From positions 1 to 35,603 of the forward strand of contig JAHIKF010000008.1 of NCBI GenBank assembly GCA_018897875.1: a DNA stretch of 35,603 nucleotides, written 5' to 3'. This stretch comes from Pseudomonadota bacterium. GTDB taxonomy: Bacteria > Desulfobacterota > Desulfobaccia > Desulfobaccales > 0-14-0-80-60-11. A program made the position numbers and the translations under genes. The notes beneath the pieces were generated by a model. That model saw nothing but the letters and a program-made list of their open reading frames with translations, searched no databases and had not been told where the DNA came from. Below are positions 4,987-34,980 of this stretch, piece after piece; within the stretch, counting starts at the first letter, position 1, and every line of letters begins with the position of its first letter.

Positions 4987-5313
4987 ATGGAGGATCACCT
5001 GAAAAACGGCGCTTCCCGCATAGATAAAGCGCAAAAATCGATCAGTATCCCTGGGCGCGAAGAGATTATTGCCATCCTGAACAAGATTTTGGAAGAGGAC
5101 TTTGAGATCGATCCCTCCATATTGAAGCCTGAGGCCTCCCTCCGTGATGATCTTGACCTCGATAGTTTAGACGGAGTCGACCTCGTAGTCGCCATTGAAA
5201 AGAAGTTTCGATTCCGCGTGGATGAGGAAGAAGCCAGGTCAATTCGCACCTTAAATGATATTTATGAATCCGTAGACCGCCGTCTCCGACAAATCGCCGA
5301 AGAACAGCCCTGA
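4987..5313 (+). CDS. Acyl carrier protein (phosphopantetheine-binding)
   Basis: It has the DLDLDSLDGVDLVVAIE motif containing the Ser attachment site. It is a small acidic helical protein with a ~25-aa N-terminal extension, so the start is uncertain. Confidence 0.85.
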   Translation: MEDHLKNGASRIDKAQKSISIPGREEIIAILNKILEEDFEIDPSILKPEASLRDDLDLDSLDGVDLVVAIEKKFRFRVDEEEARSIRTLNDIYESVDRRLRQIAEEQP

Positions 5314-5354: not shown

Positions 5355-6323
5355 ATGCAAACCCAAGGTGGTACTTCCCGGCAAATAAATCGCTGGACTG
5401 GTAGGACCAGGGGGGGGTATCTCGGCAACTGGATATTTGTTAATTTACTCCGAGTCGGCGGTCCATGGCTCGGCTATTTCTTTTTAGTTCCAGTAACTTT
5501 CTATTATCTCCTTTTCGCATCTCAGGCTGTCAAGGCATCTCAAACTTATTTACGGCGACTGGGTTATAAGCTCGAGTCCGGGTTTGAGCGGTGGTGGCTC
5601 ACGTACAAGCATTTTTACTCCTTTGGACAAAGCCTCTTGGATCGCATTGCCATCATTGCAGGAAATGCCTCAAGATATGCCTTTGTGTTTGAAGGACAAC
5701 ATCATATAGAAACCGCCTTGGCCGAGGGAAAGGGGGTTCTTATCATCAGCGCTCATTTCGGGAACTGGCAGGCAGCAGCTCATCTTTTAGGCACATTGAA
5801 CGTGCCCGTGCATATTGTTGCTTATGATAACGAGGTGGCGCCTATCAACCAACTCTTTGCCAAGGCCTTAAAGAAAAGGCTTTTTTCTGTTATTTCCCTG
5901 GACAATGACGCTGCCAGTTTAGAGATTATAACCGCATTGAAGCGGGGGGAAATTGTCGCTATGCACGCGGATAGAAGCATCGGTGATAAGCATAGTGTGC
6001 GGCTAAATTTTTTAGGGTCCCCAGCCAATTTCCCTTCCGGTCCTTACACTGTGGCGGCGCTTAGTGGCGCTCCCCTTATCCATACCTTTGCCGTGAGACG
6101 GCAAGTTTGCTCCTATCATCTTTATGCCTATCCTTCCCAGCAGCTGGCTTTTGGCAGTCGCCAGGACCGGCCCAAACAATTGGAGCAATGGGTTTCATTG
6201 TTTGTCCAGCGACTGGAAGCGCATCTAAAAAGTTATCCTTTCCAGTGGTGCAACTTTTATGAGTTCTGGGAAGGACCGCTCTCCCCCTCTTCTTTGAGGA
6301 AAGGACACCTTGAGAAAGAATAA
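5355..6323 (+). CDS. LpxL/HtrB-like lysophospholipid (lipid A-type) acyltransferase family protein (ApeD-like)
   Basis: It has N-terminal TM segments and an ISAHFGNWQ motif (HxxxxD/E-type acyltransferase box). Its length and architecture match LPLAT/LpxL-family members found in Ape-type clusters. Confidence 0.8.
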   Translation: MQTQGGTSRQINRWTGRTRGGYLGNWIFVNLLRVGGPWLGYFFLVPVTFYYLLFASQAVKASQTYLRRLGYKLESGFERWWLTYKHFYSFGQSLLDRIAIIAGNASRYAFVFEGQHHIETALAEGKGVLIISAHFGNWQAAAHLLGTLNVPVHIVAYDNEVAPINQLFAKALKKRLFSVISLDNDAASLEIITALKRGEIVAMHADRSIGDKHSVRLNFLGSPANFPSGPYTVAALSGAPLIHTFAVRRQVCSYHLYAYPSQQLAFGSRQDRPKQLEQWVSLFVQRLEAHLKSYPFQWCNFYEFWEGPLSPSSLRKGHLEKE

Positions 6324-10549: not shown

Positions 10550-10807
10550 ATGCATCAACTTATAAGCGATTTAAAGGTAAAAATTGTTGATATTCTGAAT
10601 TTGGAAGATGTCTCCCCAGAAGACATTGACGAGGCTGCGCCTCTTTTTGGAGAAGGCTTGGGGTTAGATTCTTTGGATGCCCTTGAATTAGTGGTACTGG
10701 TGGAAAAAGACTACGGTATTAAGATCACCGATATCGAAGTAGGACGGCAGGCTTTTGCTTCCGTCAATACGCTGGCCCGGTTTATCCTTGAAAAACAGGG
10801 GAAATAA
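10550..10807 (+). CDS. Acyl carrier protein
   Basis: It has the GLGLDSLDALELVVLVE phosphopantetheine attachment motif and is 85 aa long. Confidence 0.92.
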   Translation: MHQLISDLKVKIVDILNLEDVSPEDIDEAAPLFGEGLGLDSLDALELVVLVEKDYGIKITDIEVGRQAFASVNTLARFILEKQGK

Positions 10808-13159: not shown

Positions 13160-13938
13160 GCCGGTTCCAGATGGCAACCATCGCAGTTGTCGTCCTTGCG
13201 ACGGCCACCGGCGCCTTGGCCCCGGATCCTCTCCGGTGGTGGCTTTGGGGGGGACTTGCCGCTGCGTACCTGGCGCTGGTGGGTTTGGGGGTAACATTTA
13301 GCAGTTGGGGGCTTTTCGGACCGGCTATCTGCCTCGGCAGGCCGGGCGGCATGCGCGTAAGTCTCACATTTGATGACGGACCGGATCCCGCCAGCACTCC
13401 CCGATTGCTGGAAGTTTTGGAGCAACACCAGGTCAAGGCGGCATTTTTCTTGATCGGCCGGCATGCGGAAAGGCACCGCGCCTTGGTGCAGGCCATAGCC
13501 GACAAAGGGCATCTGGTGGGGAATCACACCTACCGCCATGCCTGGTGGACCAATTTTTTATGGGGCGACAGATTAGATCGGGAAATTCAGCGGGCCCAGC
13601 GGGTGTTCCAGGACATCCTGGGAACTGCGCCCCGTTTTTTCCGCAGCCCCATGGGCCTGACCAACCCACAGTTATTCGGAGCCCTGAAACGTATCGGCCT
13701 CCGGTTCGTGGGTTGGGATCTTCGAGGTCTGGACCAGCGGGCTGGCGCGGCGGCACCGGTTATTCGCCGGCTCGCGCACCGATGCCGGGACGGCAGTATA
13801 ATCCTGCTGCACGATGGGGGAGCCAATCCGCAAGTCCTGGTGGACATCGTCCATACCATCATTCCGGCCCTGCGTAATCAAGGTTTTACTTTTGTGCGGC
13901 TTGATGAATCCCTATCCCTGCCTGAAAAGGAAAACTAA
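13156..13938 (+). CDS. Membrane-anchored polysaccharide deacetylase (NodB homology domain)
   Basis: NodB motifs are present: LTFDDGPD and VGNHTYRH. There are N-terminal TM helices. ATG 13156 forms an ATGA overlap with the upstream stop, and GTG 13141 is an alternative start. Confidence 0.88.
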   Translation: MSRFQMATIAVVVLATATGALAPDPLRWWLWGGLAAAYLALVGLGVTFSSWGLFGPAICLGRPGGMRVSLTFDDGPDPASTPRLLEVLEQHQVKAAFFLIGRHAERHRALVQAIADKGHLVGNHTYRHAWWTNFLWGDRLDREIQRAQRVFQDILGTAPRFFRSPMGLTNPQLFGALKRIGLRFVGWDLRGLDQRAGAAAPVIRRLAHRCRDGSIILLHDGGANPQVLVDIVHTIIPALRNQGFTFVRLDESLSLPEKEN

Positions 13939-13942
13939 TTTA

Positions 13943-14698
13943 ATGCAAGTAATCCGTACCTGGTTCCTGATAGCTTGCCTGGTTGGGCTAATTTTAGGAA
14001 ACACCGCGAGTGCGGGCGCGGCTGAAAAGCCCGGTCGGAAAGGTCTGGCCAAGGAAACAGCCGCAGTGAGGAAATCCGCGCACAAGCTCTCCCCAGAGGA
14101 ACTGGCCCAGCTTCTGGAGCGTATTGAAAAGAAGCTGGGCAAAATCCAATCACTCTACACCGATTTTATTCAGGAAAAGCACCTGGAAATTTTCACCCGG
14201 CCGGCAGTAGCTAAGGGGCGGTGCATTTTCCAAAACCCCGGAAAGATGCGGTTTGAAATCATCGAGCCATTCCAGTCAGTCCTCATCGTCAACGACAAGG
14301 CCGTCGCTAAATATGAACTGGTAGAAGGTAAGTGGCAAAAACTCCAATCCAGCCAGCAGCAACTGGTGCTGTTGATCATCGACCACATCACTTTGTGGTT
14401 GCAGGGGCGGCTGCGAGGTAAAGAGGATATTTATGCAATTTCGGCGGAAAAGGGGGAAACCACCAAAGTGATCCTGACCCCCAGGAACGAGGGGTTCAGA
14501 AAACACCTGACAGCCATTGAGCTGGTTATGAACCGGGATGAATCCGGGATCAGGCAGATCATTCTCCGGGAACCAGGGCCAGATTACACGGTGGTCACTT
14601 TTATCAACGACCGGCGGAACCTGGCGATACCCCAGGAAGTATTCAACACCAATAGTCCCGAGCCCCCCCCGATTCCGGATGGATTGGCTGCACCATGA
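13943..14698 (+). CDS. LolA-like outer-membrane lipoprotein carrier family protein (ApeL-like)
   Basis: It has a signal peptide (MQVIRTWFLIACLVGLILGNTASAGA). The pattern after it is LolA-like: LYTDFIQEKHLEIFTRPAVAKGRCIFQNPGKMRFEI. The ATG start at 13943 lies 5 nt after the upstream stop. Confidence 0.7.
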   Translation: MQVIRTWFLIACLVGLILGNTASAGAAEKPGRKGLAKETAAVRKSAHKLSPEELAQLLERIEKKLGKIQSLYTDFIQEKHLEIFTRPAVAKGRCIFQNPGKMRFEIIEPFQSVLIVNDKAVAKYELVEGKWQKLQSSQQQLVLLIIDHITLWLQGRLRGKEDIYAISAEKGETTKVILTPRNEGFRKHLTAIELVMNRDESGIRQIILREPGPDYTVVTFINDRRNLAIPQEVFNTNSPEPPPIPDGLAAP

Positions 14699-15381: not shown

Positions 15382-15394
15382 ATCAAAGGAAATC

Positions 15395-15769
15395 ATGATG
15401 AACATGTGGTCTGACCTTCAGGATTCCCTTGTCACCATCGATCCTGGAATTGAACCTGGCACCTGGGAGGCCAAATTCTGTTTTGCCCCCAGCCTTTCCC
15501 TGTTCAGGGGACATTTTCCCGACAACCCCCTCCTGCCCGGGGTAATGCAAGTGGAAATGGCGCACCTGGCCATGGTCAGAATCACCGGAGCGAATTATCG
15601 GATTGTCGGGGTCAAGAAGGCCAAGTTCACCGGACAAGTTTTCCCCGGCGACCAGATCACGGTCCGCCTGGCAGCCAAAGACCGGGAGGATTACCTCCAG
15701 GTCAGGGACCAGCTTAGTGTGGGGGAAAAAAGGGTGGGGAGCGTCATCCTGGACTTGCAGGCATCATAA
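15395..15769 (+). CDS. fabZ: FabZ-like 3-hydroxyacyl-ACP dehydratase (ApeP-like)
   Basis: The FRGHFPDNPLLPGVMQVEMAHLA motif carries the catalytic His and Glu of FabZ-type hotdog dehydratases. An AAAGGA Shine-Dalgarno sequence lies 5 nt upstream of ATG 15395. Confidence 0.85.
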   Translation: MMNMWSDLQDSLVTIDPGIEPGTWEAKFCFAPSLSLFRGHFPDNPLLPGVMQVEMAHLAMVRITGANYRIVGVKKAKFTGQVFPGDQITVRLAAKDREDYLQVRDQLSVGEKRVGSVILDLQAS

Positions 15770-17020: not shown

Positions 17021-17025
17021 GAGAC

Positions 17026-17808
17026 ATGAGCGAACTTTACCTGGGCATCGATCTCGGGGCTTCGGCCACCAAGGCGGTTCTTCTCGATAGCCGCCGGCAG
17101 ATTGTCGCCAGGACGGTAGTGGCTACTGGCCTTGATTTCACCCGTGTAGGACAAGAGGTATTGGAGGCCGTCCTCCGACAGGCCGGAGCAGACATGGAGC
17201 ACATCCGGTGCGCCGTGGCCACCGGGTACGGCCGAAAAAATGTGCACTTTCCCTGTCTCAGCAAGACCGAGATCTCCTGCCATGGGCGCGGAGCTTATCA
17301 CTACTTTCCTGAAGCCATCACGGTGGTGGATATTGGCGGCCAGGACACCAAAATCATCAGGCTCGGACCGGATGGCCGTCTCCTCGACTTCCAGATGAAC
17401 CGCAAATGCGCCGCCGGCACGGGCGCTTTCTTGGAAGAGATGGCCCGCCGGCTCGATCTCTCTTTGAGCGAACTGGAGCAACTGGCCGGGCAAAGCCAAC
17501 AGGATGTCAAGCTCGGCTCGTATTGCACGGTCTTTACTTTTACCGAAATCCTGGCCCTGAGCCGCCGTGGGATAGCTGTCCCGGACCTGGTCAAAGCTAT
17601 CTTTAACGCCATTGTCCAACGAGTTACAGAGTTGGGCGTCCTATCCGGCAAGATCGTGGCCACTGGCGGGGTGGTAGCCTACAACCCCACTGTTGCCAAC
17701 CTTCTTGCCAACAGAATCGGCGTTGACCCCCTGATCCCGCCAGAGCCTCAACTTATCGGCGCCCTGGGTGCCGCCCTTTTCGCCTTTGAGGAAGCCGAGC
17801 ATGCATAA
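17026..17808 (+). CDS. BcrAD/BadFG/HgdC-type ATPase (acyl-CoA dehydratase activase)
   Basis: It has an ASKHA fold start (LYLGIDLGASATKAVLLD), then VVDIGGQDTKII, and MNRKCAAGTGAFLE and GSYCTVF (Cys ligands of the bridging [4Fe-4S] cluster in HgdC-type activators). Confidence 0.9.
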   Translation: MSELYLGIDLGASATKAVLLDSRRQIVARTVVATGLDFTRVGQEVLEAVLRQAGADMEHIRCAVATGYGRKNVHFPCLSKTEISCHGRGAYHYFPEAITVVDIGGQDTKIIRLGPDGRLLDFQMNRKCAAGTGAFLEEMARRLDLSLSELEQLAGQSQQDVKLGSYCTVFTFTEILALSRRGIAVPDLVKAIFNAIVQRVTELGVLSGKIVATGGVVAYNPTVANLLANRIGVDPLIPPEPQLIGALGAALFAFEEAEHA

Positions 17809-19235: not shown

Positions 19236-19835
19236 TCACTTAAAATACCGGCCCAACATGAAAATTACGGACTCGACTCCCTTATTGTTATGATTCAATC
19301 CGGCGTTGGAGATGTGATGATACCGTGCAGCCGCGAAAAACGGCAACCCTGAACCAATCATGATTTCGGTGCCGATACCCGCCTGGGGATTGAAATTTAT
19401 CCGCGAGCCCTGCCCCTTCACCTGAAAGTCGGTATAGATAACGCCGATGCCCCCTTCGATATAGGGACGCGTATAGCGGGTGGAGATAAAATCCAGGTAA
19501 TATAAGGCCAGCATCCCCAGTGAGGTCATAAAGCGGGCCTGGGGTGTCAGGCTCGAGCCGATGGTACCCTCTAATTTCCACCGCAACAACTTGGGCGCCG
19601 GGTGATGCCAGACCTTGGCATAATCCCACATGCCAAAGGCCGAGAGTTGCAGGAAGCGGATATCAGACTGGGGCGCAAAAGTGTTGCCATAGATGAGAGC
19701 AGCACCGTAGCGACCGCGCACTTCTTCCTCCTCCGGAGCCTGGCCCGACGCCAGGCCGGAGAAGATTGGAAGAAGCAAGCATGCCAACATTATCGGCAGG
19801 AATAGATGTGCCCGGAAAGGATAGTTCCTAAACAT
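19236..19835 (-). CDS. pagL: PagL-like lipid A 3-O-deacylase / acyloxyacyl hydrolase outer-membrane protein
   Basis: It has a signal peptide, a beta-barrel-like alternating pattern and a C-terminal Phe-rich end. The motif HHISNAG...NKGVE (19272-19316) has His-x-Ser and a Glu 12 residues after the Ser, the same spacing as the PagL His126/Ser128/Glu140 triad. Confidence 0.85.
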   Translation of the reverse strand: MFRNYPFRAHLFLPIMLACLLLPIFSGLASGQAPEEEEVRGRYGAALIYGNTFAPQSDIRFLQLSAFGMWDYAKVWHHPAPKLLRWKLEGTIGSSLTPQARFMTSLGMLALYYLDFISTRYTRPYIEGGIGVIYTDFQVKGQGSRINFNPQAGIGTEIMIGSGLPFFAAARYHHISNAGLNHNNKGVESVIFMLGRYFK

Positions 19836-25616: not shown

Positions 25617-27314
25617 TCAGTGTTTCGCTGTCCGGCCTGCCAGTTGGGCCAGCATTTCCTGGATCTCCTGGCGCTCGTGGGCAAAAGCCGGATAGAGCCT
25701 TTGAGCCTTATCCAGATATTCGTGAGCTTCCTGGGTTTTCCCTTGCAGGGCGGCAATCTTCCCCAAAAGCCACCAGGGCCTGTAATAACCCGGGTTGAGA
25801 TCGCAGGCGGCCAGTGCCTCCCGCCACGCTCCATCAAAATCGCCTGCTTTCATGAATTCCTGGGCCAGGAGCCGGTTTTTCTCTGCGGTTAGATAGCGTT
25901 CATAGGAGCCATTCTCCAACATCCTGTCTGGAGGGATGAGCCTGACATTCTGGGGGTTATCGAAATTGGCCAGGTCGAAGGGAACAAAGGCTCCCAGCTG
26001 ATGCGGAGCCTGGGAGACCCAGATGATGCCCGCGGTTACATCAATAATAACGGAATGGGTGGCAATTAAGGGATTAATCGCAGCTTCGTTGCCGTAAGCT
26101 ATCTTATTTCCACCCGGCACCTCCCGGTCCCGGAGAATCGTCGCCGCCACCTCCGGGGCCAGGCTCCCATCAAATTTGTCCACCAACTCAAACATCCGGT
26201 GGTAACGGTCCAGCGACGTCCCCTCGGCTATATACTTCAGATTGTCCGGGTCCCGTTCGAGTTCTCGAGTCTGGAAGTGGTTGGCACAGACGATGAAGTC
26301 CCCGGAGACCTGGCGTACTGAGCATTTGGTGGGAGTTTTTTCAACTACCACCGCCCGGGAGGTCTTGCCAGAGGCCACCAGGTAGAGGTCGGAGACGAAC
26401 ACCCGGCTCCGCCTGATGATTTCCACTGCTTCCTCCAGGGTCCGGGCGTATTGCAGGACCTCCCGCATGACCAGGGATACCGGCGTCCCAACCGTGTGTG
26501 GCAGGGCGGACCGGGCGCCGTTAATGGTGACCGCAATATGGGCATCGTTAATACCGGAGACCGCTCCGGCCATACCGGACCAGGCTACGGAAATAAACCC
26601 CAAGCCACGATCTGGTTTTACTTTGATAACGATCTTGTTTTCATCGAACCATCTGCCGGGATTGAAATCGAAGTTCCGGCCCACCAGGAGGTGCCCATCG
26701 GCTGTCTTTCCCCCCCACGCCGCGAAAGAGGTACACCCCATCAGGGGACTGTCCATCACCACATGGGAGATATCATGCGCGGCGTGGTAATTGAGAATTC
26801 GGTGGTACAGCGAGGCAATGCCCCGGAACGGGTCCACATAGCCGCGGGAAAGCCCATAAATTTCCATCTGATAGTCGGAGGGCACATAGTCGGGCAGGTT
26901 CCGGTTCATCCAGTAGACATAAAGAGTCAGGAGCCACAGTTTCACCTTAGAGGGAACGAACTGCCGTACGGTATGGTAAAGGCTCTCTTCCTGTTTCTGC
27001 ATATAGTCCTGGGTCAACCGGGCATTGCAGTAACCCAGGGTGAAAGGATCTCCCTCGAGATACATGCGGAGAATCCCATCTTTCTTGGCAATCCAGGACT
27101 TGCCGATGATGGCGCGCTCGCCGTCTTTGACGAGGCTCTCTTTCAAGATAGGAGGAGTCCCGAGGAGCACCGGCTCCCGGGCGGTGCAATACCACACCGT
27201 AAACCAGGAGAAACCCAGGATCAGGGCCGAAACACCTAGGAAGACCGCCGCCGTAACTTTCAGGACTTTCTTAGCCCGGTGCGGGCGCTGGTATGCTTTT
27301 TCTGTAATCTTCAT
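25617..27314 (-). CDS. Membrane-anchored C45-family Ntn acyltransferase/hydrolase (acyl-CoA:6-APA acyltransferase-like) with C-terminal TPR
   Basis: It has an N-terminal TM helix (VTAAVFLGVSALILGFSWFTVWY), a putative autoprocessing/nucleophile site (MGCTSFAAWG), VGRNFDF, and a C-terminal TPR-like helical repeat (FMKAGDFDGAWREALAACDLNPGYYRPWWLLGKIAALQGKTQEAHEYLDKA). Confidence 0.8.
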   Translation of the reverse strand: MKITEKAYQRPHRAKKVLKVTAAVFLGVSALILGFSWFTVWYCTAREPVLLGTPPILKESLVKDGERAIIGKSWIAKKDGILRMYLEGDPFTLGYCNARLTQDYMQKQEESLYHTVRQFVPSKVKLWLLTLYVYWMNRNLPDYVPSDYQMEIYGLSRGYVDPFRGIASLYHRILNYHAAHDISHVVMDSPLMGCTSFAAWGGKTADGHLLVGRNFDFNPGRWFDENKIVIKVKPDRGLGFISVAWSGMAGAVSGINDAHIAVTINGARSALPHTVGTPVSLVMREVLQYARTLEEAVEIIRRSRVFVSDLYLVASGKTSRAVVVEKTPTKCSVRQVSGDFIVCANHFQTRELERDPDNLKYIAEGTSLDRYHRMFELVDKFDGSLAPEVAATILRDREVPGGNKIAYGNEAAINPLIATHSVIIDVTAGIIWVSQAPHQLGAFVPFDLANFDNPQNVRLIPPDRMLENGSYERYLTAEKNRLLAQEFMKAGDFDGAWREALAACDLNPGYYRPWWLLGKIAALQGKTQEAHEYLDKAQRLYPAFAHERQEIQEMLAQLAGRTAKH

Positions 27315-27401: not shown

Positions 27402-28625
27402 TCAGGATTCCTTTTTTACAATAAGCACGGCGTTGACCCCACCGAAGGCGAAGTTGCTGGTCATTACCAGATCCAACTCGGTTTCTATCTTTTCCTGGAC
27501 ATGACCGATACCGCGGCAGGCGGGGTCTATCTCCTCCAGATTGAGGGTGGGAGCGATAAATCCGTGCTTCATCATCAGCAGGCAGAATATCAGCTCAATA
27601 GCCCCACACGCTGCCAGGGTGTGGCCCGTGTATCCCTTGGTGCTGCTCACAGGCACCTTGTCGCCTATCAGTTCCTTAATGGCCTGGCATTCCGCTATAT
27701 CACCCAAATCAGTGCCGGTGGCATGGGCATTGATATAAGCCAGGTCAGTATTCTGGATGGCGGCAGCTTCCAACGCCGCACGCATACAACGGACCATACC
27801 ATCCTGGCTGGGTGTAGTCATGTGGCTGCCGTCGCAACAAGTCCCGTATCCTAAAATTTCACCGTAGATTTTGGCGCCTCGCTCCCGGGCGCGGCCATAT
27901 TCTTCTAAAACCACAACGGCCCCACCTTCGCTAACCACTAAACCGTCGCGGCGAATATCAAAAGGCCGCGGGGTGGTGTGGGGGGCGTCGTTAAAACTCC
28001 TGGAGGCTGCATGCAGGATGTCAAAGACCCCGGCGGTGATGGGATGAAGATCATCGGCGCCGCCGCAGAACATCAGGTCCTGGTAGCCGTCTTTAATTGC
28101 CTCATAACCGTAGCCAATGGCCTGGGTTGATGAAGCACAGGCGCTACAGGGGGCGATCAAGCGGCCCTTAACGCCAAGCATCGTCCCCACATTAGCGGCT
28201 ACCGTATGCCCCATGATTTTCATGAAGTTGGTGCCTTCTTGTTCCAAAATGCCGCCGGTGGCCAGGTAACTGCCAAAAAAGTTTTCCAGAACTGGCACTG
28301 AGCCTGTGGTGGAACCCATGGCAACACCGGTGCGCTCCGACGTAACATCGTCCTCGCCCAGGTTGGCGTCCGCCATGGCGTCCTGCGAGGCCAGGGCCGC
28401 CAGGATGCCTACCCTGCCCATGGTCCGGCGATGCTTGCGCTCAATCAGGCGCGGCTCAATCCCGTCTACTACCCCAGCTACCAGGGATCTCAGGCCCTGG
28501 ATTCGCTCCCATTCCGACATGCGCCGAATTCCCGACTTACCGCTAAGCAAACTTGCCAGCACCGCCTCAAGGGAATTGCCGATGGGAGAAAGGATGCCGA
28601 TACCGGTAATGGCCACCCGCCTCAT
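27402..28625 (-). CDS. Beta-ketoacyl-ACP synthase, FabB/FabF-like
   Basis: It starts MRRVAITGIGILSPIG and has PCSACASSTQAIG, NAHATGT and GYTGHTLAACGAIE...HGFIAPTLNLEEID. Confidence 0.92.
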   Translation of the reverse strand: MRRVAITGIGILSPIGNSLEAVLASLLSGKSGIRRMSEWERIQGLRSLVAGVVDGIEPRLIERKHRRTMGRVGILAALASQDAMADANLGEDDVTSERTGVAMGSTTGSVPVLENFFGSYLATGGILEQEGTNFMKIMGHTVAANVGTMLGVKGRLIAPCSACASSTQAIGYGYEAIKDGYQDLMFCGGADDLHPITAGVFDILHAASRSFNDAPHTTPRPFDIRRDGLVVSEGGAVVVLEEYGRARERGAKIYGEILGYGTCCDGSHMTTPSQDGMVRCMRAALEAAAIQNTDLAYINAHATGTDLGDIAECQAIKELIGDKVPVSSTKGYTGHTLAACGAIELIFCLLMMKHGFIAPTLNLEEIDPACRGIGHVQEKIETELDLVMTSNFAFGGVNAVLIVKKES

Positions 28626-30115
28626 GAGGTTTCTTCCTTGATCTTGTTTATGAGATAGTTGCGACCCAAAATGGCAGTGCCGGTATAAACCCCGCTGATC
28701 AGCGCCCCCATGACTCCTGGCTGGACAATGCTCTGCCCGGCTAAAAACAAGTTTTTGACTTTCGTTTCGGTGCTAAGCTGGGCATGCCTGAAGTTGCTGG
28801 CCGATTTAATAATACCATAAGCCGTACCCCAGGGTGTCAGGGTATAGTCCCGGAAGGTAAGGGGGGTACAGGCGTCCACCATCTTCAGGGATGGCGCCTG
28901 CTCTGGCCAGTGCTCCTGCAAGGTGTCCAGGATGCGCCTGGCCAGGGAACGCTTTGCGGCTTGGTAGGCTTCGGAGCGTTCCCCTCTTCGGGTCAGCTCA
29001 AAAGGTGTCATCTCTCCCGGAGCTATCCCCACCAAAGCAGTTACCGCATATTCGCGGTTGGCTTCTTGGGGCATGGCGCAGCAATAGATCATGCTGGGCC
29101 TCTGGGAAAGGGAAACTAATTTTTGGTGATATTGCGCTTCCGTGTCCCAGCTATTGTAGATAAAGGTATCACACTGGACCAGGGTACAATCAGGGTGCCC
29201 CCAACTGAGCGCCAGGGCAAAAGCGCCGAAGGTGTCCTGCGTATCTTCCAGTCTGTGCCTGAAGGCGGGGCGGAAGGAGCCGGGCGGGCAGAGGGTGAGG
29301 ATCTGGCGGGGATGGCCCGTAAAGATCACGAGGTCTGTCGGAATGTATTCCGCATTTGCCAGCACCACGCCTTCGACTCGCCCCCCGCTGGCCGAGATAT
29401 TGGTCACCAGGGCGTTACAGCGAACTTCACCGCCATGGGCCAGTAAGCTTTTGACAAAAGCTTCCGCCAGAGGTGTGGCACACTCGTCGACCCGCCACGA
29501 ACTATTAAGAAACGAGTCCATGACCAGGAAATGAGTGTGCAGCGGGCATTCACTCGGGGGAATCCCATAGAGCGGATTGCTGGCAGAGAGAATCCCTTTA
29601 AGTTCCCGGGAGCAGTTCAAGTGGTCCAGGTAGGAAGCCAGAGATATGCTTTCCAGAATCGGCCCCGACCTCTCAGATTCGTTCAACAGGTTATAAAGAG
29701 GAAACTGGGAAACCAGGCGATTCATATCCGTGAAGAACTGATCGATTGCCACTTTCTCCCGGGGAAAATATTGGTGCAGGCGCTCGCGAAAAGCATCCTG
29801 GCCGATGGGAACCCTGAATCGTAAGCCGGGAAAGGAGTATTCTTCAAATCCGTCTGCGGACATACGCTTCAGGCTCAGTTTATCCCGAACCTCAAGATAC
29901 TGGAAGTACCGACTCAGGATCTGTCCATCGTCCAGGGAACCAAGACGGTGAACCCCGGTGGGAAAGACCAGGGCTTGGCGGCGAAAATGCTGCATGAGCC
30001 CCCCTGGCTGGGAGTGTTGCTCCAATACGAGGACCCGCCGTCCTTCCTTGGCGAGGATGATGGCTACGGTCATCCCGCTAACCCCGGAGCCGATTATGAC
30101 CGCGTCGTAGCGCAT
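28622..30115 (-). CDS. NAD(P)/FAD-dependent oxidoreductase of the phytoene desaturase (CrtI) family
   Basis: It has the dinucleotide fold YDAVIIGSGVSGMTVAIILAKEGRRVLVLEQHSQPGG and the C-terminal CrtI-type motif LFLAGQSIVQPGVMGALISG. An ATGA-type 4-nt overlap links it to the downstream KS. Confidence 0.85.
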   Translation of the reverse strand: MRYDAVIIGSGVSGMTVAIILAKEGRRVLVLEQHSQPGGLMQHFRRQALVFPTGVHRLGSLDDGQILSRYFQYLEVRDKLSLKRMSADGFEEYSFPGLRFRVPIGQDAFRERLHQYFPREKVAIDQFFTDMNRLVSQFPLYNLLNESERSGPILESISLASYLDHLNCSRELKGILSASNPLYGIPPSECPLHTHFLVMDSFLNSSWRVDECATPLAEAFVKSLLAHGGEVRCNALVTNISASGGRVEGVVLANAEYIPTDLVIFTGHPRQILTLCPPGSFRPAFRHRLEDTQDTFGAFALALSWGHPDCTLVQCDTFIYNSWDTEAQYHQKLVSLSQRPSMIYCCAMPQEANREYAVTALVGIAPGEMTPFELTRRGERSEAYQAAKRSLARRILDTLQEHWPEQAPSLKMVDACTPLTFRDYTLTPWGTAYGIIKSASNFRHAQLSTETKVKNLFLAGQSIVQPGVMGALISGVYTGTAILGRNYLINKIKEETS

Positions 30116-33100
30116 CCTGATTCCTTCTTGAAGACCAAGACAATATTGGAGCCGCGGCCTAGGTCTGGAACCTCCGCAAGAAACTTGACTCCTTGCTTGG
30201 TAAAGGCGTTTATAAAAAACTCCTTGGTCTGAAAATACAGGCCGGTCCCTCTTTGGTTATGCCCCACCTTAACCCCGAAATATTCTCCCATCCTTACCGC
30301 CAGATGGCCAAATGAACGAGTGCTAAAAGCATCTCTAAATACAATTGATCCCCCTTCACGGAGGGCCTGGCAGGCTTTGGCGATTACCTCCAATTGCCTG
30401 CCCTCGGGCCAATAGTGGAGGGAATCAATCAACAACACCACGTCTACCGGAGGATATTCCCATTCCAGAAAATTTTCCCTATGGAATTCTATATTGGGGA
30501 AAGCCAGGGCCACTCCCTGACTGACCCTAAACTTTCTCTCGTCAAAGTCAATGCCCAGTATGTGTCTGTGCCTCGATTTACGGGCCAAAATTGCCGCCAT
30601 CAGCCCATAGCCAGATCCCAGGTCCAGAACGGTTCCTTCTTGGGGCACCAGGTCGTTTATACCCTTATAGATGGGATCCAATCTTAATTTCCAGGAAATA
30701 TAACTCTCTACATAACTGCCACGGTAATTATAAAGCGATCTGATGTTATGCCAGAAGGACGGGCCATCCTGGGATAGTTGCCAATCCTGGAGTTCATAGC
30801 GCTGCAGCATTTTCTTGACATGCCGGGAAAGTTCTCGGGCTTCCAGGGAATAATCGAACTGGTCCCTGGTTACCCGGTCCAGCACCCGCACCACCGTCTG
30901 GTGGTCTCCCACCCAAAAGGCCTTGGGAGGAACGCAATCCTTGGAATTGGAAATCAATACCGGTAAGATATCGCTTTCAGTTTCCAGCGCCAGCTTGAAC
31001 GCTCCCACGTGGAAGCGCCTGAGTTGGCCATCCGGGGAACGGCTGCCCTCCGGGAAAATCATGATGGAAATCCCTTTTTCCAGGCATTCCCGGCTCTGTT
31101 GTAAAATTCCCTGATATGATTCTTGATCCACAAGTATATAGCCAGCATCCTGGATCAGGGGTCCGATCACCGGCGCATCCCAAACCCATTGTTTAACCAC
31201 CATCACCATCTCCACCGGGAGGGCAAGCATCAGCATGATGTCAAAGGAGGATTGGTGATTACTGATGATAACGGACGGCCGAGCAAATTTATCTGGCTCC
31301 GCTCCGAGGTATATGCGCCGGCTGTCCAAGTAAGGAATATGTCGCACCAGTGCTGCCGCCACCATATGGAGATAACGTCGGCAAAACTTGCGTCTGGCTT
31401 CCGAGTCCTGGGGATAGCGCAGTCTCATGACCCAGCGAAGGCAATAGCTATATAGGAAGGCAGCCCCTACAAGATAAACTGCGGCCCAGGCGGCTCCCGC
31501 CATTGTCTTCAGAGAAGGAGTCCCATGGCTCCCGTCTTGCCACAAGAGCCGTTTCATGTAGGATGGCACAATCACCAAAGCCGCCGCCACGCTGGCAAGC
31601 ATGGAGATCAGTCCCGTGAGACCCATAGAAAATAGCATGCTGTGCCTGGCAAATACCAGGCTGAAAAAACCGCCTGCGCTGGTTAAAGCGCAAATTATGA
31701 CCGCCCCGCACATGAGGGACTCATGGCCACCCTGGCTCCGATACTGATTCAGGGCGCTGCTCATCAGGAAGATGCTGAAGTCCACCCCCACCCCAAAAAT
31801 AAAAACCACGAAGAGGAGACTCATAAGATTGATGCGGACGCCCAAAAAGCCCATCATTCCCATGGTGACGACCACGCTGGCCAGAACCGGCAGCAGATTC
31901 ACTATTACCAGTTCCGCCCGCCGGAGAAAGAGGAACAGGACGAGAGTGATGGCCCCGAGAGCAATAAGCAGCAGTTTGTGGAACTCCCCTTTGACCAGGG
32001 TGCCCATATGTTCCACAAAGGCTTTCTTATCCACCACTATGGCCCCCGGTACCGCCGCCGCGATCCTGGTTTCGATCTCGGGCAGTCGGGAACGGTCCTC
32101 CAGGAAAAAAGAGCTCATTACCAGGCTCTCCGTTCCGTCAGTCACCACCTTGCTGGCCATCAGGTACTTTAGTGGCGTGGACTGAAAGTCTTTAAGGGTG
32201 ACAGGTGGAGGCGTTTGATCCAACGCATCAAAAAAGGGTCCGAAGATTTTCGAATTAAACCCCTGGGCTTCTGCCTCCTTTTCAAGACTTGACCTCAGGG
32301 CACTGCGGCGTGAAGCTGACCAGAATTCTTTCCATCTCTGGAGATTGTCCTCCTGGGTCCTGAGCGCGGGAAGGATGGGAGAGATTGACCCGAACCGGAC
32401 AATCTTTCCGGCCGCCATGAGCTCCTTTAACACCTCGAACACGCGGTCATTTGCTTCCAGGGCTTCTTCAAGGTTGGCGCCGTGCACAACCGTCGCGGTT
32501 GGAGAAAAACTACCCCATACTTTCAGTATCTTTTCTGAGTCCCTTTGGTTTTCCGGATTAAGGTGGCTTAACCGGGAGACGTCCCCCTCGAACTGTAGCC
32601 AGGTGATCCCGTAAGCGCCCAGCGCCAGCAAACTTACCCCCGCAATCAGGGTCCAGCGGCGATAATTATCCCTCCATTCTCGAAACCGGAAGCAAAAAGT
32701 ATCCAGGGGAAAAACAGGTCTGGATACTTTACCGGGGCGGTCGGGGATAAAATATCGTAAACCCAAGATGGCAAAAAGCATGGCGCCGATAATCCCGAGA
32801 CTGGCAAACCATCCCATCTGCCGCTGACCTGGCAGGGACATGAAAGTCAGACCGGCGAATCCGGCAATAGTGGTGGCCGCGCCCATCACCAATGGAAATA
32901 CCAGGGCGCGCAGTACCTGTTTCCGCTTCGTCCTCCCGGTTTCCACGTTGTCCAGGTGGTAGAGAAGTAAAACGCCATAATCCACCGCAATCCCTACCAG
33001 CACTGTGCCGCAGCCCAGGGCGATAGCAGAAAAGAATGGGTCCCAGAGAGCTATTACCCCGGCCGCCATGGTCAGACCAAATGCGGCTGGCAAAAAGATC

Positions 33101-33972
33101 AGAAGCACGAACAGTCTGCGGCGAAAGACCAAGAAGCCAAGCAACAACAGGCCAAGCGACATGGAAATGGTGGCCCGGGTAACGTCACCTTTGATGGTTA
33201 AAGAATTATCGAGGGTCGATATATGACTGCCGGTAAAACTTATTCCGACCCGACTCCTGGGGGAGACCTCGACCGACTCGCGGCGCGCCTGGTTAAGCAG
33301 TTCCACCAGCTTCTCTCCCCGTTTGGTATCCACTGCCGGGAAGTCTGGAAGGGCGATCATAAGAATATGCTTGCCATCCTCGTTCCACAAACGGCCGGCT
33401 TGCATCTGGGTTCCGGCAGAATCCGCCCGTAAGATTTCCAGCTTTTGTAAAACCAGGTCATCAAGGTTTAGCGGATCCCGGCTCACCCGGCCGCTCCAGA
33501 ATACTCCGGCGGGCTCGAGCAGACGGCGCTTGGCAGCCGCAAGCAACCGGCGAACCTCCTCATCCTTCAGGCGAGAGCCATAACGAGCCATATCAGTCTC
33601 CCCCGCCAGACGGGCCTTTCTGGAACTCAGTAAGACGATAAGGTTGCCGAATTGATCGCCGGAAATTTTATAAAAAATATTGGCGAAAATCCCAGAACGG
33701 TGCAACCTCTCGTAAAAGGCATCGGCCACGGATTCGGCATCCTGTTGGTCTCCTGGCTTTGCCGACTCGGATTCGATATCCACATAGACTGCATCCAACA
33801 CATGGAAGCGCTGGGCTACGAACAGGTATCGGTTGAATATCGGGTCGGTATCCGGCAGCATGGACGTAAGCCGTTCGTCCAGATGCAGTCGGCTAGCTGA
33901 AATCAGACTCAAAATTAAGAGGGTACCCAGAGCGAGGATGGCTCCCCAGCGTCGCCGATTTTCAGGTTTCAT
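30094..33972 (-). CDS. Triple-fusion protein: MMPL/RND-type lipid exporter + PlsC-type (LPLAT) acyltransferase + class I SAM methyltransferase
   Basis: The MMPL part has two 6-TM bundles with GIAVDYGVLLLYH and GVGVDFSIFLMSS. The PlsC part has motifs NHQSSFD (31240-31260) and FPEGSRS (31036-31056). The SAM-binding motif I is VLDLGSGYG (30604-30630). All lie in one uninterrupted frame. I prefer ATG 33972 (AGGAGAGGA Shine-Dalgarno). The track ORF starts at 34017. Confidence 0.88.
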   Translation of the reverse strand: MKPENRRRWGAILALGTLLILSLISASRLHLDERLTSMLPDTDPIFNRYLFVAQRFHVLDAVYVDIESESAKPGDQQDAESVADAFYERLHRSGIFANIFYKISGDQFGNLIVLLSSRKARLAGETDMARYGSRLKDEEVRRLLAAAKRRLLEPAGVFWSGRVSRDPLNLDDLVLQKLEILRADSAGTQMQAGRLWNEDGKHILMIALPDFPAVDTKRGEKLVELLNQARRESVEVSPRSRVGISFTGSHISTLDNSLTIKGDVTRATISMSLGLLLLGFLVFRRRLFVLLIFLPAAFGLTMAAGVIALWDPFFSAIALGCGTVLVGIAVDYGVLLLYHLDNVETGRTKRKQVLRALVFPLVMGAATTIAGFAGLTFMSLPGQRQMGWFASLGIIGAMLFAILGLRYFIPDRPGKVSRPVFPLDTFCFRFREWRDNYRRWTLIAGVSLLALGAYGITWLQFEGDVSRLSHLNPENQRDSEKILKVWGSFSPTATVVHGANLEEALEANDRVFEVLKELMAAGKIVRFGSISPILPALRTQEDNLQRWKEFWSASRRSALRSSLEKEAEAQGFNSKIFGPFFDALDQTPPPVTLKDFQSTPLKYLMASKVVTDGTESLVMSSFFLEDRSRLPEIETRIAAAVPGAIVVDKKAFVEHMGTLVKGEFHKLLLIALGAITLVLFLFLRRAELVIVNLLPVLASVVVTMGMMGFLGVRINLMSLLFVVFIFGVGVDFSIFLMSSALNQYRSQGGHESLMCGAVIICALTSAGGFFSLVFARHSMLFSMGLTGLISMLASVAAALVIVPSYMKRLLWQDGSHGTPSLKTMAGAAWAAVYLVGAAFLYSYCLRWVMRLRYPQDSEARRKFCRRYLHMVAAALVRHIPYLDSRRIYLGAEPDKFARPSVIISNHQSSFDIMLMLALPVEMVMVVKQWVWDAPVIGPLIQDAGYILVDQESYQGILQQSRECLEKGISIMIFPEGSRSPDGQLRRFHVGAFKLALETESDILPVLISNSKDCVPPKAFWVGDHQTVVRVLDRVTRDQFDYSLEARELSRHVKKMLQRYELQDWQLSQDGPSFWHNIRSLYNYRGSYVESYISWKLRLDPIYKGINDLVPQEGTVLDLGSGYGLMAAILARKSRHRHILGIDFDERKFRVSQGVALAFPNIEFHRENFLEWEYPPVDVVLLIDSLHYWPEGRQLEVIAKACQALREGGSIVFRDAFSTRSFGHLAVRMGEYFGVKVGHNQRGTGLYFQTKEFFINAFTKQGVKFLAEVPDLGRGSNIVLVFKKESGCATTRS

Positions 33973-34176
33973 GTTCCTCTCCTGGGACCGGGCAAAGCCC
34001 AAGAAGTTGCGGCGCATAGGGGAGCGACGGCAGGAAGCCGATAGATTGGGGTACGTTGGCGGTAGTTGAAGCGGAAAAATATTGCTTTAAGGCCATGAGC
34101 TGGCCCCGTCTACCTCAGAGGGATTTAGGCATTCGGAGAGGTTGAAAGGAAAAATTGCCATTACTTCCCATTTGAA

Positions 34177-34980
34177 CTAAGTATTTCGACCAGTTCCCTT
34201 GCCGTAGGCACATGGCATTTTCTGAATTATCTTTTGGAATAACAGAGAAATAATCAAAACGGAAACCAACATGAAATCTCGAAAAGGACGAAAATGCGAC
34301 TTACTGCCTGGGACATAGTTTACAGCAATGGGAACTTCCCGTATCGGGGTGCCCGCCCACAGGGCCATTACCAATACTTCAATTTCAAAATCATATTTTT
34401 GCTTTTTCAAGGGAAGTTCAAGAATGGAAGCCAGGGGATAGGCCCGGAACCCGCATTGAGAATCACCCACCCACTTTTGTGTGAGAACCCATACCCAGAA
34501 ATTGGAATGGGCCCGCAAGAGCCGGCTTTTTAGTCGCTTACCTCCTCCGGCCAGATTACGCCGCCCAACGATCAGAGCGTCTGGGTGGTTTTCCATTTCC
34601 TCAAGAAATTTCGACAAGTCCACTGCCAGATGTTGCCCGTCTCCGTCCATGGTTATCGTATAATTATAATTAGAGTGAGCGGCAAACCGAAGGCCACTGA
34701 CTAAAGCCGCACCCTTCCCCAAGTTGCGTTCATGGGTAATTACCGTAATACCCGGAATCGCCGACAAGACCTTGTCGGCCCCATCGGTTGAGCCATCATT
34801 CACTACTATCAGGTCCGGTGTTACTTTCAGAATATCCTTTATCACGTCACCCATGGTGAGTTGATTGTTGTACGTCGGCACAACGATACAAAATGATGAA
34901 GGGGATCTGTTGATATCGTTTGGCGGGGATGCCCTCTCACCCTCGGGGGTTGAGCGTTTCACTTCCTCAGGTGGCCTCAT
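34177..34980 (-). CDS. Family 2 glycosyltransferase (ApeG-like / Dpm1-like)
   Basis: It has FCIVVPTYNN, VVNDGSTDG and TMDGDGQH motifs typical of GT2 (GT-A fold), plus a C-terminal hydrophobic helix. Confidence 0.88.
   Translation of the reverse strand: MRPPEEVKRSTPEGERASPPNDINRSPSSFCIVVPTYNNQLTMGDVIKDILKVTPDLIVVNDGSTDGADKVLSAIPGITVITHERNLGKGAALVSGLRFAAHSNYNYTITMDGDGQHLAVDLSKFLEEMENHPDALIVGRRNLAGGGKRLKSRLLRAHSNFWVWVLTQKWVGDSQCGFRAYPLASILELPLKKQKYDFEIEVLVMALWAGTPIREVPIAVNYVPGSKSHFRPFRDFMLVSVLIISLLFQKIIQKMPCAYGKGTGRNT

Follow-up and report, generated by a model that had tools for sequence, protein, structure and literature searches.

Aryl polyene-type lipids are made and exported by sets of proteins that, in the characterised Ape clusters, are encoded separately. 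As the earlier note had stated, these functions are separate proteins: in E. coli CFT073 we found distinct genes for the MMPL transporter (772 aa), the LPLAT acyltransferase (273 aa), the methyltransferase (352 aa) and the GT2 glycosyltransferase (558 aa). Xenorhabdus ApeD has been proposed to acylate the sn-2 position of lysophosphatidylglycerol with a conjugated fatty acid made by the cluster, a role that rests on mutant intermediates and not on in vitro work (bioRxiv 10.1101/2020.12.19.423268). The xanthomonadin-type clusters of beta-proteobacteria encode acyltransferase and exporter in two separate, neighbouring genes (PMC3949708). In flexirubin-type clusters, fusion is the normal state: it was noted in a supplementary table of Schoner et al. 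2014 (PMC3992019), the fused protein is identified as FlxU (PMC12968099), and RefSeq has a product name beginning 'trifunctional' for homologs such as the C. rupis and P. vulgatus proteins. The three-domain architecture is not new, and the family is already annotated in hundreds of genomes. No experimental study of any FlxU-type protein was found in the searchable literature.

The same concept is found in mycobacteria, where synthesis and export meet in the pairs MmpL7-PpsE, MmpL8-Chp1 and MmpL10-Chp2 and the final acylation of polyketide lipids takes place at the membrane beside an MMPL exporter. There, distinct polypeptides are coupled by protein-protein contact and the acyltransferases are not of the PlsC type, whereas in the FlxU-type protein a PlsC-type enzyme is covalently fused to the exporter.

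We analysed a stretch of 35,603 nucleotides from a Desulfobaccales genome (the window) and found that one of its genes is probably the Desulfobaccales ortholog of FlxU, a trifunctional protein of the inner membrane encoded in lipid clusters of the flexirubin/aryl-polyene type (type II PKS). Its features were as follows, with residues in the 1307-aa numbering used for all domains of the fusion:

30094..33972, minus strand: complete FlxU-type coding sequence (single open frame, Shine-Dalgarno GGAGAGG, 1292-aa homologs, colinear with Chitinophaga rupis FlxU)
33973..34017, minus strand: disfavoured N-terminal extension of 15 codons, read from an in-frame ATG further upstream
31528..33972, minus strand: MMPL/RND (HAE3/HpnN-like) lipid transporter domain, residues 16-830 (Pfam, HpnN 5KHN match, structure search)
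32974..32994, minus strand: TM4 motif GIAVDYG (D346-Y347), candidate proton-relay pair
31774..31794, minus strand: TM10 motif GVGVDFS (D746), candidate proton-relay residue
31339..31512, minus strand: PlsC-type two-helix membrane anchor, residues 836-893 (AF2 helices, 5KYM alignment)
30844..31338, minus strand: LPLAT/PlsC catalytic core, residues 894-1058 (PF01553, 5KYM match)
31240..31260, minus strand: HX4D motif (NHQSSFD)
31036..31056, minus strand: FPEGSRS motif
30097..30840, minus strand: class I SAM methyltransferase domain, residues 1060-1307 (Pfam, fold search)
30604..30630, minus strand: GxGxG motif (VLDLGSGYG)

The minus-strand frame runs over 30094..34017 (1307 aa) when read from the first ATG, or over 30094..33972 (1292 aa) from Met16. 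Met16 is the likelier start as judged from sequence, because GGAGAGG sits 3 nt 5' of its ATG and the closest homologs (P0001-P0003) are all 1292 aa; a single cluster member (P0168) was called at 1307 aa, and no Shine-Dalgarno sequence was found ahead of the ATG at 34017. The frame contains a single stop, the terminal one at 30094-30096, and no open frame was found at the ends of the window. All three domain types scored above their Pfam gathering thresholds in one chain, in the order MMPL, PF01553 acyltransferase, class I methyltransferase. The earlier note's uninterrupted 1292-aa frame, its three domain calls, the coordinates it gave for NHQSSFD, FPEGSRS and VLDLGSGYG and its two RND motifs, now located in TM4 and TM10, were all borne out.

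Could two or three adjacent genes have been merged through a missed stop codon or a frameshift? We consider such an assembly or annotation artefact extremely improbable; we found no support for it, and the sole ambiguity was the choice of start codon (34017 or 33972). Two contigs are recorded with the identical sequence, ENA, Logan and NCBI assemblies supplied full-length 1292-aa homologs (94, 86 and 86% identity), and the same cluster holds further 1292-aa JGI members, so that proteins of equal length recur in independent assemblies. An intact fusion frame of at least 1200 aa was present in 74/79 genome loci from other organisms of several phyla, mostly Bacteroidota (for example Phocaeicola vulgatus, Chitinophaga and Flavobacterium). 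Linker and anchor are conserved in sequence among fusion proteins, and AF2 modelled the domain junctions with high confidence.

The earlier note had also suggested a search for the same architecture, and the domain order recurred in those 74 loci and in 91 of the best 150 matches to the acyltransferase-methyltransferase half, which were full-length three-domain proteins. That half was matched by 331 cluster representatives (50% identity clusters) at E <= 1e-30. The HX4D, FPEGxR and GxGxG motifs and the TM10 Asp were kept in 20 fusion proteins ranging from 94% down to 24% identity, and in 73-75 of 75 genome copies. Chitinophaga rupis FlxU aligned at 26.5% identity over 1279 aa (E = 6e-136) and the P. 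vulgatus protein gave E = 4e-144. The Bacteroidota proteins (1282-1284 aa against 1292 aa) have the same three domains in the same order, are colinear over about 1280 residues and share the catalytic motifs, as well as the neighbours FlxT (GT2) upstream and FlxV and FlxW downstream. Identity is nevertheless only 26-27%, and the host here belongs to the Thermodesulfobacteriota (Desulfobaccales).

The genes around the fusion that bear on its function were:

34177..34980, minus strand: GT2 glycosyltransferase, equivalent of FlxT and of the N-terminal half of ApeJ, adjoining the fusion upstream
28622..30115, minus strand: phytoene-desaturase-like FAD oxidoreductase, FlxV equivalent, overlapping the 3' end of the fusion gene
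25617..27314, minus strand: C45/Ntn-hydrolase (AAT) protein with a TPR tail, FlxW equivalent (NF040521, 205 bits against a cut-off of 85)
13814..14698, plus strand: LolA-like periplasmic carrier, FlxQ/ApeL equivalent, presumed acceptor of the exported lipid
5355..6323, plus strand: LpxL-like acyltransferase, equivalent of FlxE and of the C-terminal half of ApeJ, a separate gene
4987..5313, plus strand: acyl carrier protein 1 (ApeF-like), candidate acyl donor carrier
10550..10807, plus strand: acyl carrier protein 2 (ApeE-like), candidate acyl donor carrier

This context is of the FlxU type, with GT2 upstream, FlxV and FlxW downstream, and KS, ACP, LolA and deacetylase genes nearby. Across the genome loci, GT2 lay directly upstream of the fusion in 55/68, a FlxV-type oxidoreductase directly downstream in 52/67 and a FlxW-type Ntn hydrolase within 4.5 kb downstream in 44/59. 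The APE core set as defined by Grammbitter et al. 2020 (KS, CLF, two ACPs, DH, KR and RND transporter) was present. Counterparts of the E. coli and Xenorhabdus cluster genes ApeR, Q, O, K, J, I, E, F and C also lie in the window (ApeR, Q, O, C, E, F, I, K and M were each matched). We also observed a PagL-like (deacylase) gene, and a B12-radical-SAM enzyme (TIGR04072) that could carry out C-methylation. Compared with Bacteroidota flx clusters, the upstream GT2 lacks the DUF2062 tail present in most orthologs, an extra KS gene separates the FlxV and FlxW equivalents, and TAL (FlxA), CoA ligase (FlxY) and the methyltransferase FlxJ are all missing from the window; nor did we see any dialkylresorcinol genes. 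A search of the window for aryl-starter supply found no ApeH/FlxY ligase, AMP-binding gene or tyrosine ammonia-lyase/aromatic-lyase, which could lie elsewhere in the genome. The cluster is putatively of the aryl-polyene type, an aryl polyene being a possible product only, because recognisable aryl-starter genes are lacking; an ApeB/FlxJ gene is likewise absent from the window.

The transporter part gave an MMPL Pfam match of 60.8 bits (cut-off 20.5) in two stretches, one per transporter half, and has 12 TM helices with two periplasmic loops (238 and 205 residues) after TM1 and TM7. HpnN was the best match both in sequence (5KHN, E = 9e-19) and in the Foldseek structure search, where it was followed by MmpL4, MmpL5 and MmpL3. 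These lipid or siderophore exporters (HpnN: PDB 5KHN and 6WU0) are likewise 12-TM RND proteins with two periplasmic domains, but the solved structures lack fused enzyme domains whereas the fusion protein carries two. Assignment as HpnN itself was rejected (TIGR03480, 118 bits against a cut-off of 752; NF052374, 64 against 1100). Charged candidate relay residues are present in TM4 (D346-Y347) and TM10 (D746). D746 was kept in 74/75 sequences and Y347 in 72/75, while D346, the TM4 Asp of the presumed proton relay, was found in only 27/75; Asn or Ser takes the place of this Asp in the others, among them most Bacteroidota copies, which counts against the mechanism proposed below. PDB entry titles describe several MmpL5 structures as complexes with AcpM, an acyl carrier protein, so that there is a precedent for biosynthesis on carrier proteins and an MMPL transporter coming together at the cytoplasmic face.

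Within the cluster, the transporter part was the sole homolog of ApeM from E. coli CFT073 and Xenorhabdus doucetiae (22% over about 600 aa, E = 1e-15). Close stand-alone relatives among the MMPL transporters, 38-42% identical, serve similar clusters without an acyltransferase-methyltransferase tail, and covalent coupling is therefore not obligatory. There is also a two-domain MMPL-acyltransferase relative, whose gene is directly followed by those for an ACP and then an AMP-ligase; together with the adjacent, separate acyltransferase and exporter genes of xanthomonadin-type clusters, it points to a modular fusion.

The acyltransferase part belongs to the LPLAT/AGPAT (PlsC-fold) family, having the HX4D dyad, FPEGxR and the PlsC alpha-beta fold with its two-helix anchor. 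PF01553 scored 77.7 bits (cut-off 23; E = 9.5e-22), and across 75 copies H921 was conserved in 74, D926 in all and P-E-G-x-R in 74. Thermotoga maritima PlsC (5KYM) was found by sequence search (E = 1.5e-14) and matched over its whole chain, anchor included, with TMt 0.75-0.76 (244 columns over 232-241 residues); the two have 21% identity and HX4D and FPEGxR in common. The earlier note's 'extra hydrophobic segments' between transporter and acyltransferase are not additional TM helices; they form the two-helix membrane anchor at the N-terminus of the PlsC fold (H197-228 and H233-254 in the AF2 model). Unlike in 5KYM, this anchor is tethered to TM12 of the transporter, and a methyltransferase follows the catalytic core. 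The acyltransferase part is a candidate ApeD ortholog: in a comparison confined to window genes it was the sole homolog of ApeD from E. coli CFT073 and Xenorhabdus doucetiae (25-27% identity; 27% over 216 aa, E = 1e-16). The housekeeping PlsC equivalogs were rejected (TIGR00530, 76.9 bits against a cut-off of 102.95; PRK15018, 38.8 against 501), and by sequence the database name '1-acyl-sn-glycerol-3-phosphate acyltransferase' overstates what is known of this part.

Transporter-PlsC fusions can also serve lysolipid salvage. The acyltransferase domain matched positions 443-551 of the 1147-position NCBIfam profile NF006386, 'acyl-[ACP]--phospholipid O-acyltransferase', whose first part is an MFS transporter. 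By a similar, LplT-Aas-like logic, the transporter would bring in or present a lyso-lipid, for example the product of the PagL-like deacylase encoded in the cluster, for re-acylation, and export would not be the main role. We regard salvage as improbable, since HpnN, MmpL3, MmpL4 and MmpL5, the closest structural relatives, transport lipids or siderophores outwards, the LolA-like periplasmic carrier fits export, and flexirubin-type pigments are located in the outer membrane (PMC3992019).

The C-terminal part is a class I SAM methyltransferase: it shows a Rossmann-like fold, the GxGxG loop and, following beta-2, an acidic residue. Ahead of the Rossmann core lies a conserved helical cap rich in aromatic residues. 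Methyltransf_25 scored 46 bits (cut-off 27), five methyltransferase Pfam families were above cut-off, and 73-74 of 75 copies kept GxGxG and 73 kept D1157. The fold search returned solely generic class I small-molecule methyltransferases (TMt about 0.7). An ApeB/FlxJ assignment was rejected: BLASTP against ApeB gave E = 0.36, and the dimerisation domain is absent, whereas the ApeB/FlxJ type consists of a Methyltransf_2 core with a Dimerisation2-like N-terminal domain. ApeB had no match anywhere in the window.

The methyltransferase could still stand in for ApeB/FlxJ in this cluster and methylate the chromophore head group, not the lipid anchor, given that the window has no methyltransferase of the ApeB/FlxJ type and that the fusion bears the only class I methyltransferase domain among the window genes scanned. 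We think this unlikely. The similarity to ApeB is not significant, the B12-radical-SAM enzyme could offer another route to C-methylation, and the aryl-starter genes are absent from the window. In Chitinophaga the true ApeB ortholog (FlxJ, a separate 355-aa gene; 44% identity, E = 1e-118) coexists with FlxU in the cluster, and the ancestral role of the FlxU methyltransferase is therefore other than that of ApeB. The earlier note's mapping of Ape functions onto the fusion accordingly stood for ApeM and ApeD, whose sole cluster homologs lie inside it as one protein and which are separate genes in E. coli; ApeB has no counterpart there. Nor does ApeJ, in E. coli a GT2 fused with an LpxL-like acyltransferase: its halves match two separate genes, at 34177-34980 and 5355-6323.

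Since the acyltransferase is a general LPLAT superfamily member and no specific family could be assigned to the methyltransferase, both domains might serve bulk housekeeping phospholipids, or be structural or regulatory appendages of the transporter, with no role in the cluster product. This we consider very improbable: the near-invariant catalytic residues argue against a purely structural role, synteny with PKS-lipid genes is tight across phyla, and the housekeeping PlsC equivalog score is far below cut-off.

As to topology, the short cytoplasmic loops of the transporter contain 21 Lys/Arg in 94 residues and the short periplasmic loops 3 in 33, from which we infer a cytoplasmic C-terminus for the RND part. 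Lys/Arg also flank the hydrophobic core of the anchor on both sides. With the hydrophobic segments being a PlsC two-helix anchor, the acyltransferase is therefore expected on the cytoplasmic leaflet and the SAM-dependent methyltransferase in the cytoplasm. These Lys/Arg counts and the AF2 models supply the topology and structure prediction that the earlier note had proposed. AF2 gave pLDDT 93 and pTM 0.88 for residues 640-1307, and pLDDT 88 and pTM 0.80 for residues 108-1307; in a chain of several domains, such high pTM values suggest that the domains are fixed relative to one another. The fusion had been read earlier as a hint about the order and location of late steps. Co-location at the inner membrane is implied by a stable fusion, but the order does not follow, as a fusion shows location and partnership only.

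Coupled acylation, methylation and export is plausible for the FlxU-type protein. In an ApeD-equivalent step, the acyltransferase would transfer an ACP-bound, cluster-made acyl or polyene chain to a lyso-(glycero)lipid anchor in the inner leaflet. The methyltransferase would then methylate the lipid or the chromophore, an activity distinct from ApeB/FlxJ ring methylation. Driven by the proton-motive force, the RND domain would extract the finished lipid, which the LolA-like carrier would take over in the periplasm and deliver to the outer membrane. The fusion would thereby hold the last cytoplasmic tailoring steps beside the export site.

A stronger version, which we consider possible but doubtful, is that the fusion is a true channelling device: the PlsC site, anchored against the membrane domain of the transporter, would pass the acylated and methylated lipid straight to the RND entry site, with the methyltransferase also filling the missing ApeB/FlxJ role in this anaerobe. 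The pTM values fit a fixed assembly, though they do not demonstrate channelling. If channelling were true, synthesis and export would be one concerted event, and this would be the first RND transporter shown with its own biosynthetic enzymes.

The fusion is encoded on the minus strand by a single open frame that ends at 30094 and starts at either 34017 (first ATG, 1307 aa) or 33972 (Met16, 1292 aa). Because GGAGAGG lies upstream of Met16 and the closest homologs are 1292 aa long, we found the uninterrupted frame described in the earlier note, 30094-33972, to be the better gene model. Residue numbers used here refer to the 1307-aa frame. The three motifs assigned to the acyltransferase (AT) and methyltransferase (MT) parts were found exactly where that note had placed them:

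31240-31260, minus strand: NHQSSFD motif, fusion AT
31036-31056, minus strand: FPEGSRS motif, fusion AT
30604-30630, minus strand: VLDLGSGYG motif, fusion MT

All three domain calls (MMPL, PlsC-type AT and MT) passed the Pfam gathering thresholds. MMPL matched in two stretches (E = 1.4e-16), Acyltransferase PF01553 covered residues 913-1023 (E = 9.5e-22) and Methyltransf_25 with four related families covered residues 1125-1276. The nearest NCBIfam models were HpnN/HAE3 for the transporter and the AGPAT group for the AT, both below their equivalog cut-offs. A first homolog search found fifteen full-length three-domain proteins at 42-94% identity and four at 25-27%. When 20 three-domain proteins were aligned, the His and Asp of HX4D, FPEGxR, GxGxG, the acidic SAM-binding residues and the Asp of TM10 were invariant or nearly so, and the linkers between the domains were also conserved.

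We scanned one genome per species for relatives of the fusion and obtained at least 599 matching stretches; 589 of the 599 listed were confirmed as relatives. An assembly error or a missed stop codon was ruled out, since the frame was intact (at least 1200 aa) in 74 of the 79 best of these loci and 1292-aa homologs (94, 86 and 86% identity) came from separate ENA, Logan and NCBI assemblies. An identical sequence has been recorded for two contigs, and its cluster contains further 1292-aa JGI members. Promoter and terminator scans around the gene gave chance-level results only, and thus no support for internal elements expressing the domains separately. The best 79 loci were mostly from Bacteroidota (Phocaeicola vulgatus ATCC 8482, Bacteroides, Chitinophaga, Flavobacterium, Alistipes, Odoribacter, Mucilaginibacter, Porphyromonas), together with one Chlorobiota, one Planctomycetota (47% identity) and one Desulfobacterales (53%). 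A partial copy, 98% identical, was found in a 'Deltaproteobacteria' MAG, and the source of an 86%-identical homolog is labelled Desulfobaccales; on these grounds the window belongs to Thermodesulfobacteriota. Among 75 family sequences H921 was kept in 74, D926 in all 75, P-E-G-x-R in 74 and the three SAM-loop glycines in 73-74.

When the AT+MT half alone was used for an exhaustive HMMER search, 331 representatives of 50%-identity clusters matched at E <= 1e-30. Among the top 150 of these, 91 were full-length three-domain proteins and the others were mostly truncated fragments, so the AT+MT didomain is almost always tethered to the transporter. A word-indexed search with the same half gave mainly contig fragments from this family and was of little further use. 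The 90%-identity cluster of the P. vulgatus protein holds 19,787 member sequences (about 19,800), an upper bound with some 496-aa FlxV-like entries mixed in.

The family occurs in flexirubin-type and aryl-polyene (APE)-type clusters of Bacteroidota, abundant human-gut species included. A 2026 taxonomic paper equates the product name with FlxU of the flexirubin cluster (PMC12968099), and the three-domain architecture has been on record since 2014, as it is listed in the supplementary table of Schoner et al. When the literature was searched for studies of FlxU function or for the name 'trifunctional MMPL', annotation-level mentions only were found. The fusion thus belongs to a family that is known and already annotated, and is itself unstudied. 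The earlier note had observed it correctly and interpreted it partly right; the fusion is not novel. Our analysis corrects the database name '1-acyl-sn-glycerol-3-phosphate acyltransferase' and extends the FlxU family to Desulfobaccales, though the value for the window itself is modest.

The surrounding cluster consists of type II PKS/FAS-like lipid genes over about 30 kb:

4987, plus strand: ACP
5355-6323, plus strand: LpxL-like acyltransferase
6310-7647, plus strand: B12-radical SAM protein (TIGR04072, above equivalog cut-off)
7653, plus strand: FabA-like dehydratase
8077, plus strand: thioesterase
8537, plus strand: KS
9718, plus strand: CLF
10550, plus strand: ACP
10807, plus strand: KS
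11999, plus strand: KS-like gene
13141-13938, plus strand: polysaccharide deacetylase
13814, plus strand: LolA
14695, plus strand: gene of no assigned function, after LolA
15356-15769, plus strand: ApeI-like dehydratase, 137 aa (26% identity to E. coli ApeI, E = 3e-10)
15779, plus strand: HGD-D-type dehydratase
17026, plus strand: activase of the HGD-D-type dehydratase
17768, plus strand: ADP-forming CoA ligase
19236-19835, minus strand: PagL-like lipid A 3-O-deacylase homolog
28622-30115, minus strand: phytoene-desaturase-like FAD oxidase
34177-34980, minus strand: GT2

The order on the minus strand is GT2, fusion, FAD oxidase, KS, C45/Ntn hydrolase, KR, KS, GlcD-FeS-CCG oxidoreductase, an unassigned gene and PagL. 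The ApeI-like gene is below the ORF listing threshold of 150 aa and was found by comparison with ApeI. BLAST against the flx cluster of Chitinophaga rupis paired ACP, FlxN, FlxO, FlxP, FlxQ, FlxT, FlxU, FlxV and FlxW one-to-one with window genes, and comparison with P. vulgatus likewise gave one-to-one matches onto flx genes. In those of the 74 intact-fusion loci with sequence available, GT2 was directly upstream of the fusion in 55 of 68, the FAD oxidase directly downstream in 52 of 67 and the Ntn hydrolase within 4.5 kb in 44 of 59.

Several other features of the window were noted. Its GT2 is short (267 aa), without the DUF2062 membrane domain of the 388-414-aa orthologs (comparison loci L003, L028 and L044), and a gap of 160-205 bp separates it from the fusion in place of the usual start/stop overlap; the short form is shared with the Desulfobacterales locus L006. 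The nearest NCBIfam model for the window GT2 is polyprenyl-phospho-GalNAc synthase, below cut-off. The PagL-like protein, polysaccharide deacetylase, GT2 and LpxL-like AT together hint at an amino-sugar-containing, lipid-A-like anchor. The B12-radical SAM protein scored 429 bits (cut-off 360) against TIGR04072, 'lipid biosynthesis B12-binding/radical SAM protein', a marker of 'ladderane-type' lipid clusters, and could be a C-methylase or other radical tailoring enzyme. Rfam and tRNA scans of the window gave no matches. A GC-rich stretch at about 3800-4500 (GC 0.60, GC skew +0.17) has no convincing ORF, and the left edge carries:

near the window start: IstB-like fragment
228-677, minus strand: pentapeptide-repeat ORF
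1463-2977, minus strand: sigma-54 activator
3048-3317, minus strand: transposase C-terminal remnant

In E. coli CFT073 the transporter, AT and MT functions are on separate genes, as had been stated for characterised Ape clusters, whereas the window has them in one chain. The earlier note equated this chain with ApeM, ApeD/J and ApeB. The first two assignments held for ApeM and ApeD: the window has a single homolog of ApeM, the transporter part (22% identity, E about 1e-15), and a single homolog of ApeD, the AT part (27% identity over 216 aa, E = 1e-16). Identity of the AT with ApeJ was rejected, as ApeJ matches two other window genes, GT2 (36%) and the LpxL-like AT (27%). These are separate, distant genes in the window and in flx clusters, while E. 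coli ApeJ (558 aa; 8213-9889 of comparison locus L005) is a fusion of both. The ApeB assignment also failed. ApeB had no match in the window, its comparison with the fusion MT being non-significant (E = 0.36); it belongs to Methyltransf_2 and has a dimerisation domain, and FlxJ, its clear Chitinophaga ortholog (44% identity, E = 1e-118), has its own gene in the cluster that also encodes FlxU. The FlxU MT is thus an additional activity, distinct from ApeB.

Different lineages therefore fuse different pairs of late-step enzymes, which supports treating these enzymes as one membrane-bound assembly. In beta-proteobacterial xanthomonadin-type clusters, AT and exporter are adjacent but separate genes (PMC3949708). 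We also found two-domain relatives: an MMPL+AT protein (P0088, locus L085, 1312-6423) followed directly by ACP and AMP-ligase genes, and an MMPL+MT protein (P0094, locus L086, 722-6258) between an AMP-ligase and an LpxL-like AT. Both follow the modular logic of the fusion. Stand-alone Desulfobacterota MMPLs are closer to the window transporter part (38-42% identity) than are the Bacteroidota three-domain proteins (26%), suggesting repeated gain, loss or transfer of the AT-MT tail. A fission scenario would place adjacent AT and MT genes beside a stand-alone MMPL; none were found within 10 kb either side in locus L001, which has a PEMT-type methyltransferase and an LpxL-type AT instead.

Confident AlphaFold2 (AF2) models were obtained for residues 640-1307 (pLDDT 93, pTM 0.88) and 108-1307 (pLDDT 88, pTM 0.80), and such high pTM values for a multi-domain chain suggest that the domains are held in a fixed arrangement. 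The entire chain of T. maritima PlsC (5KYM) could be aligned with the fusion AT (244 columns, TMt 0.75-0.76; sequence E = 1.5e-14), including the N-terminal two-helix membrane motif (residues 836-867 and 872-893). The extra hydrophobic segments reported before the AT are thus present, but are the PlsC membrane anchor. Short cytoplasmic loops contain 21 Lys/Arg in 94 residues and short periplasmic loops 3 in 33, which fits an N-in, C-in topology, and Lys/Arg residues flank the anchor helix at either side. These charges would place the AT on the cytoplasmic leaflet and the SAM-dependent MT in the cytoplasm. An extra transmembrane helix leading to a periplasmic AT was rejected in favour of a monotopic PlsC anchor, given the AF2 model, the 5KYM match and the charges.

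The closest structural neighbour of the transporter was HpnN, followed by MmpL4, MmpL5 and MmpL3; in several of the matched MmpL5 entries the transporter is in complex with AcpM, an acyl carrier protein. The MT matched generic small-molecule class I methyltransferases only, giving no substrate clue. TM10 D746 was kept in 74 of 75 family sequences, while the position of TM4 D346 (32980-32982) was Asp in 27, Asn in 36 and Ser in 11, so in Bacteroidota copies the presumed RND proton relay may rest mainly on TM10.

No tyrosine ammonia-lyase, 4-coumarate or ApeH-type ligase or ApeB/FlxJ methyltransferase was found in the window cluster. A candidate starter module lies at 15779-19189 (plus strand) and 20786-23431 (minus strand). 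Its genes encode a HadB/benzoyl-CoA-reductase-B-like HGD-D, an activase of acyl-CoA dehydratase that scores above the TIGR00241 cut-off, the alpha subunit of an ADP-forming acyl-CoA ligase and a 2-hydroxyacid oxidoreductase of the GlcD-FeS-CCG type. Together they could convert a 2-hydroxy acid anaerobically into an enoyl-CoA starter (cinnamoyl or coumaroyl-like). In L006 the oxidoreductase is conserved along with the unassigned gene next to it. Among flx/ape-type clusters this one is a Desulfobaccales variant, with a 2-hydroxyacyl-CoA-dehydratase-like module in place of recognisable aryl-starter genes. Within the window, that module may be more original than the fusion.

In Xenorhabdus, mutant intermediates led to the proposal that ApeD transfers a conjugated, cluster-made fatty acid to sn-2 of lysophosphatidylglycerol before ApeJ adds sugar and aryl polyene (bioRxiv 10.1101/2020.12.19.423268). 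For FlxU the domains, motifs, conservation, synteny and fold were demonstrated, whereas substrates, order and actual coupling are inferred. By analogy with ApeD, the AT would probably acylate a lyso-lipid anchor from an ACP-bound chain; the MT would then modify the same lipid or its chromophore, and the RND part would export the product to the LolA-like carrier. The last acylation and a methylation would thus happen at the inner membrane, on its cytoplasmic side, in domains joined to the exporter that supplies this carrier. The FlxU family is very common, and its architecture offers a concrete, testable view of the poorly understood late steps of aryl-polyene/flexirubin lipid assembly.
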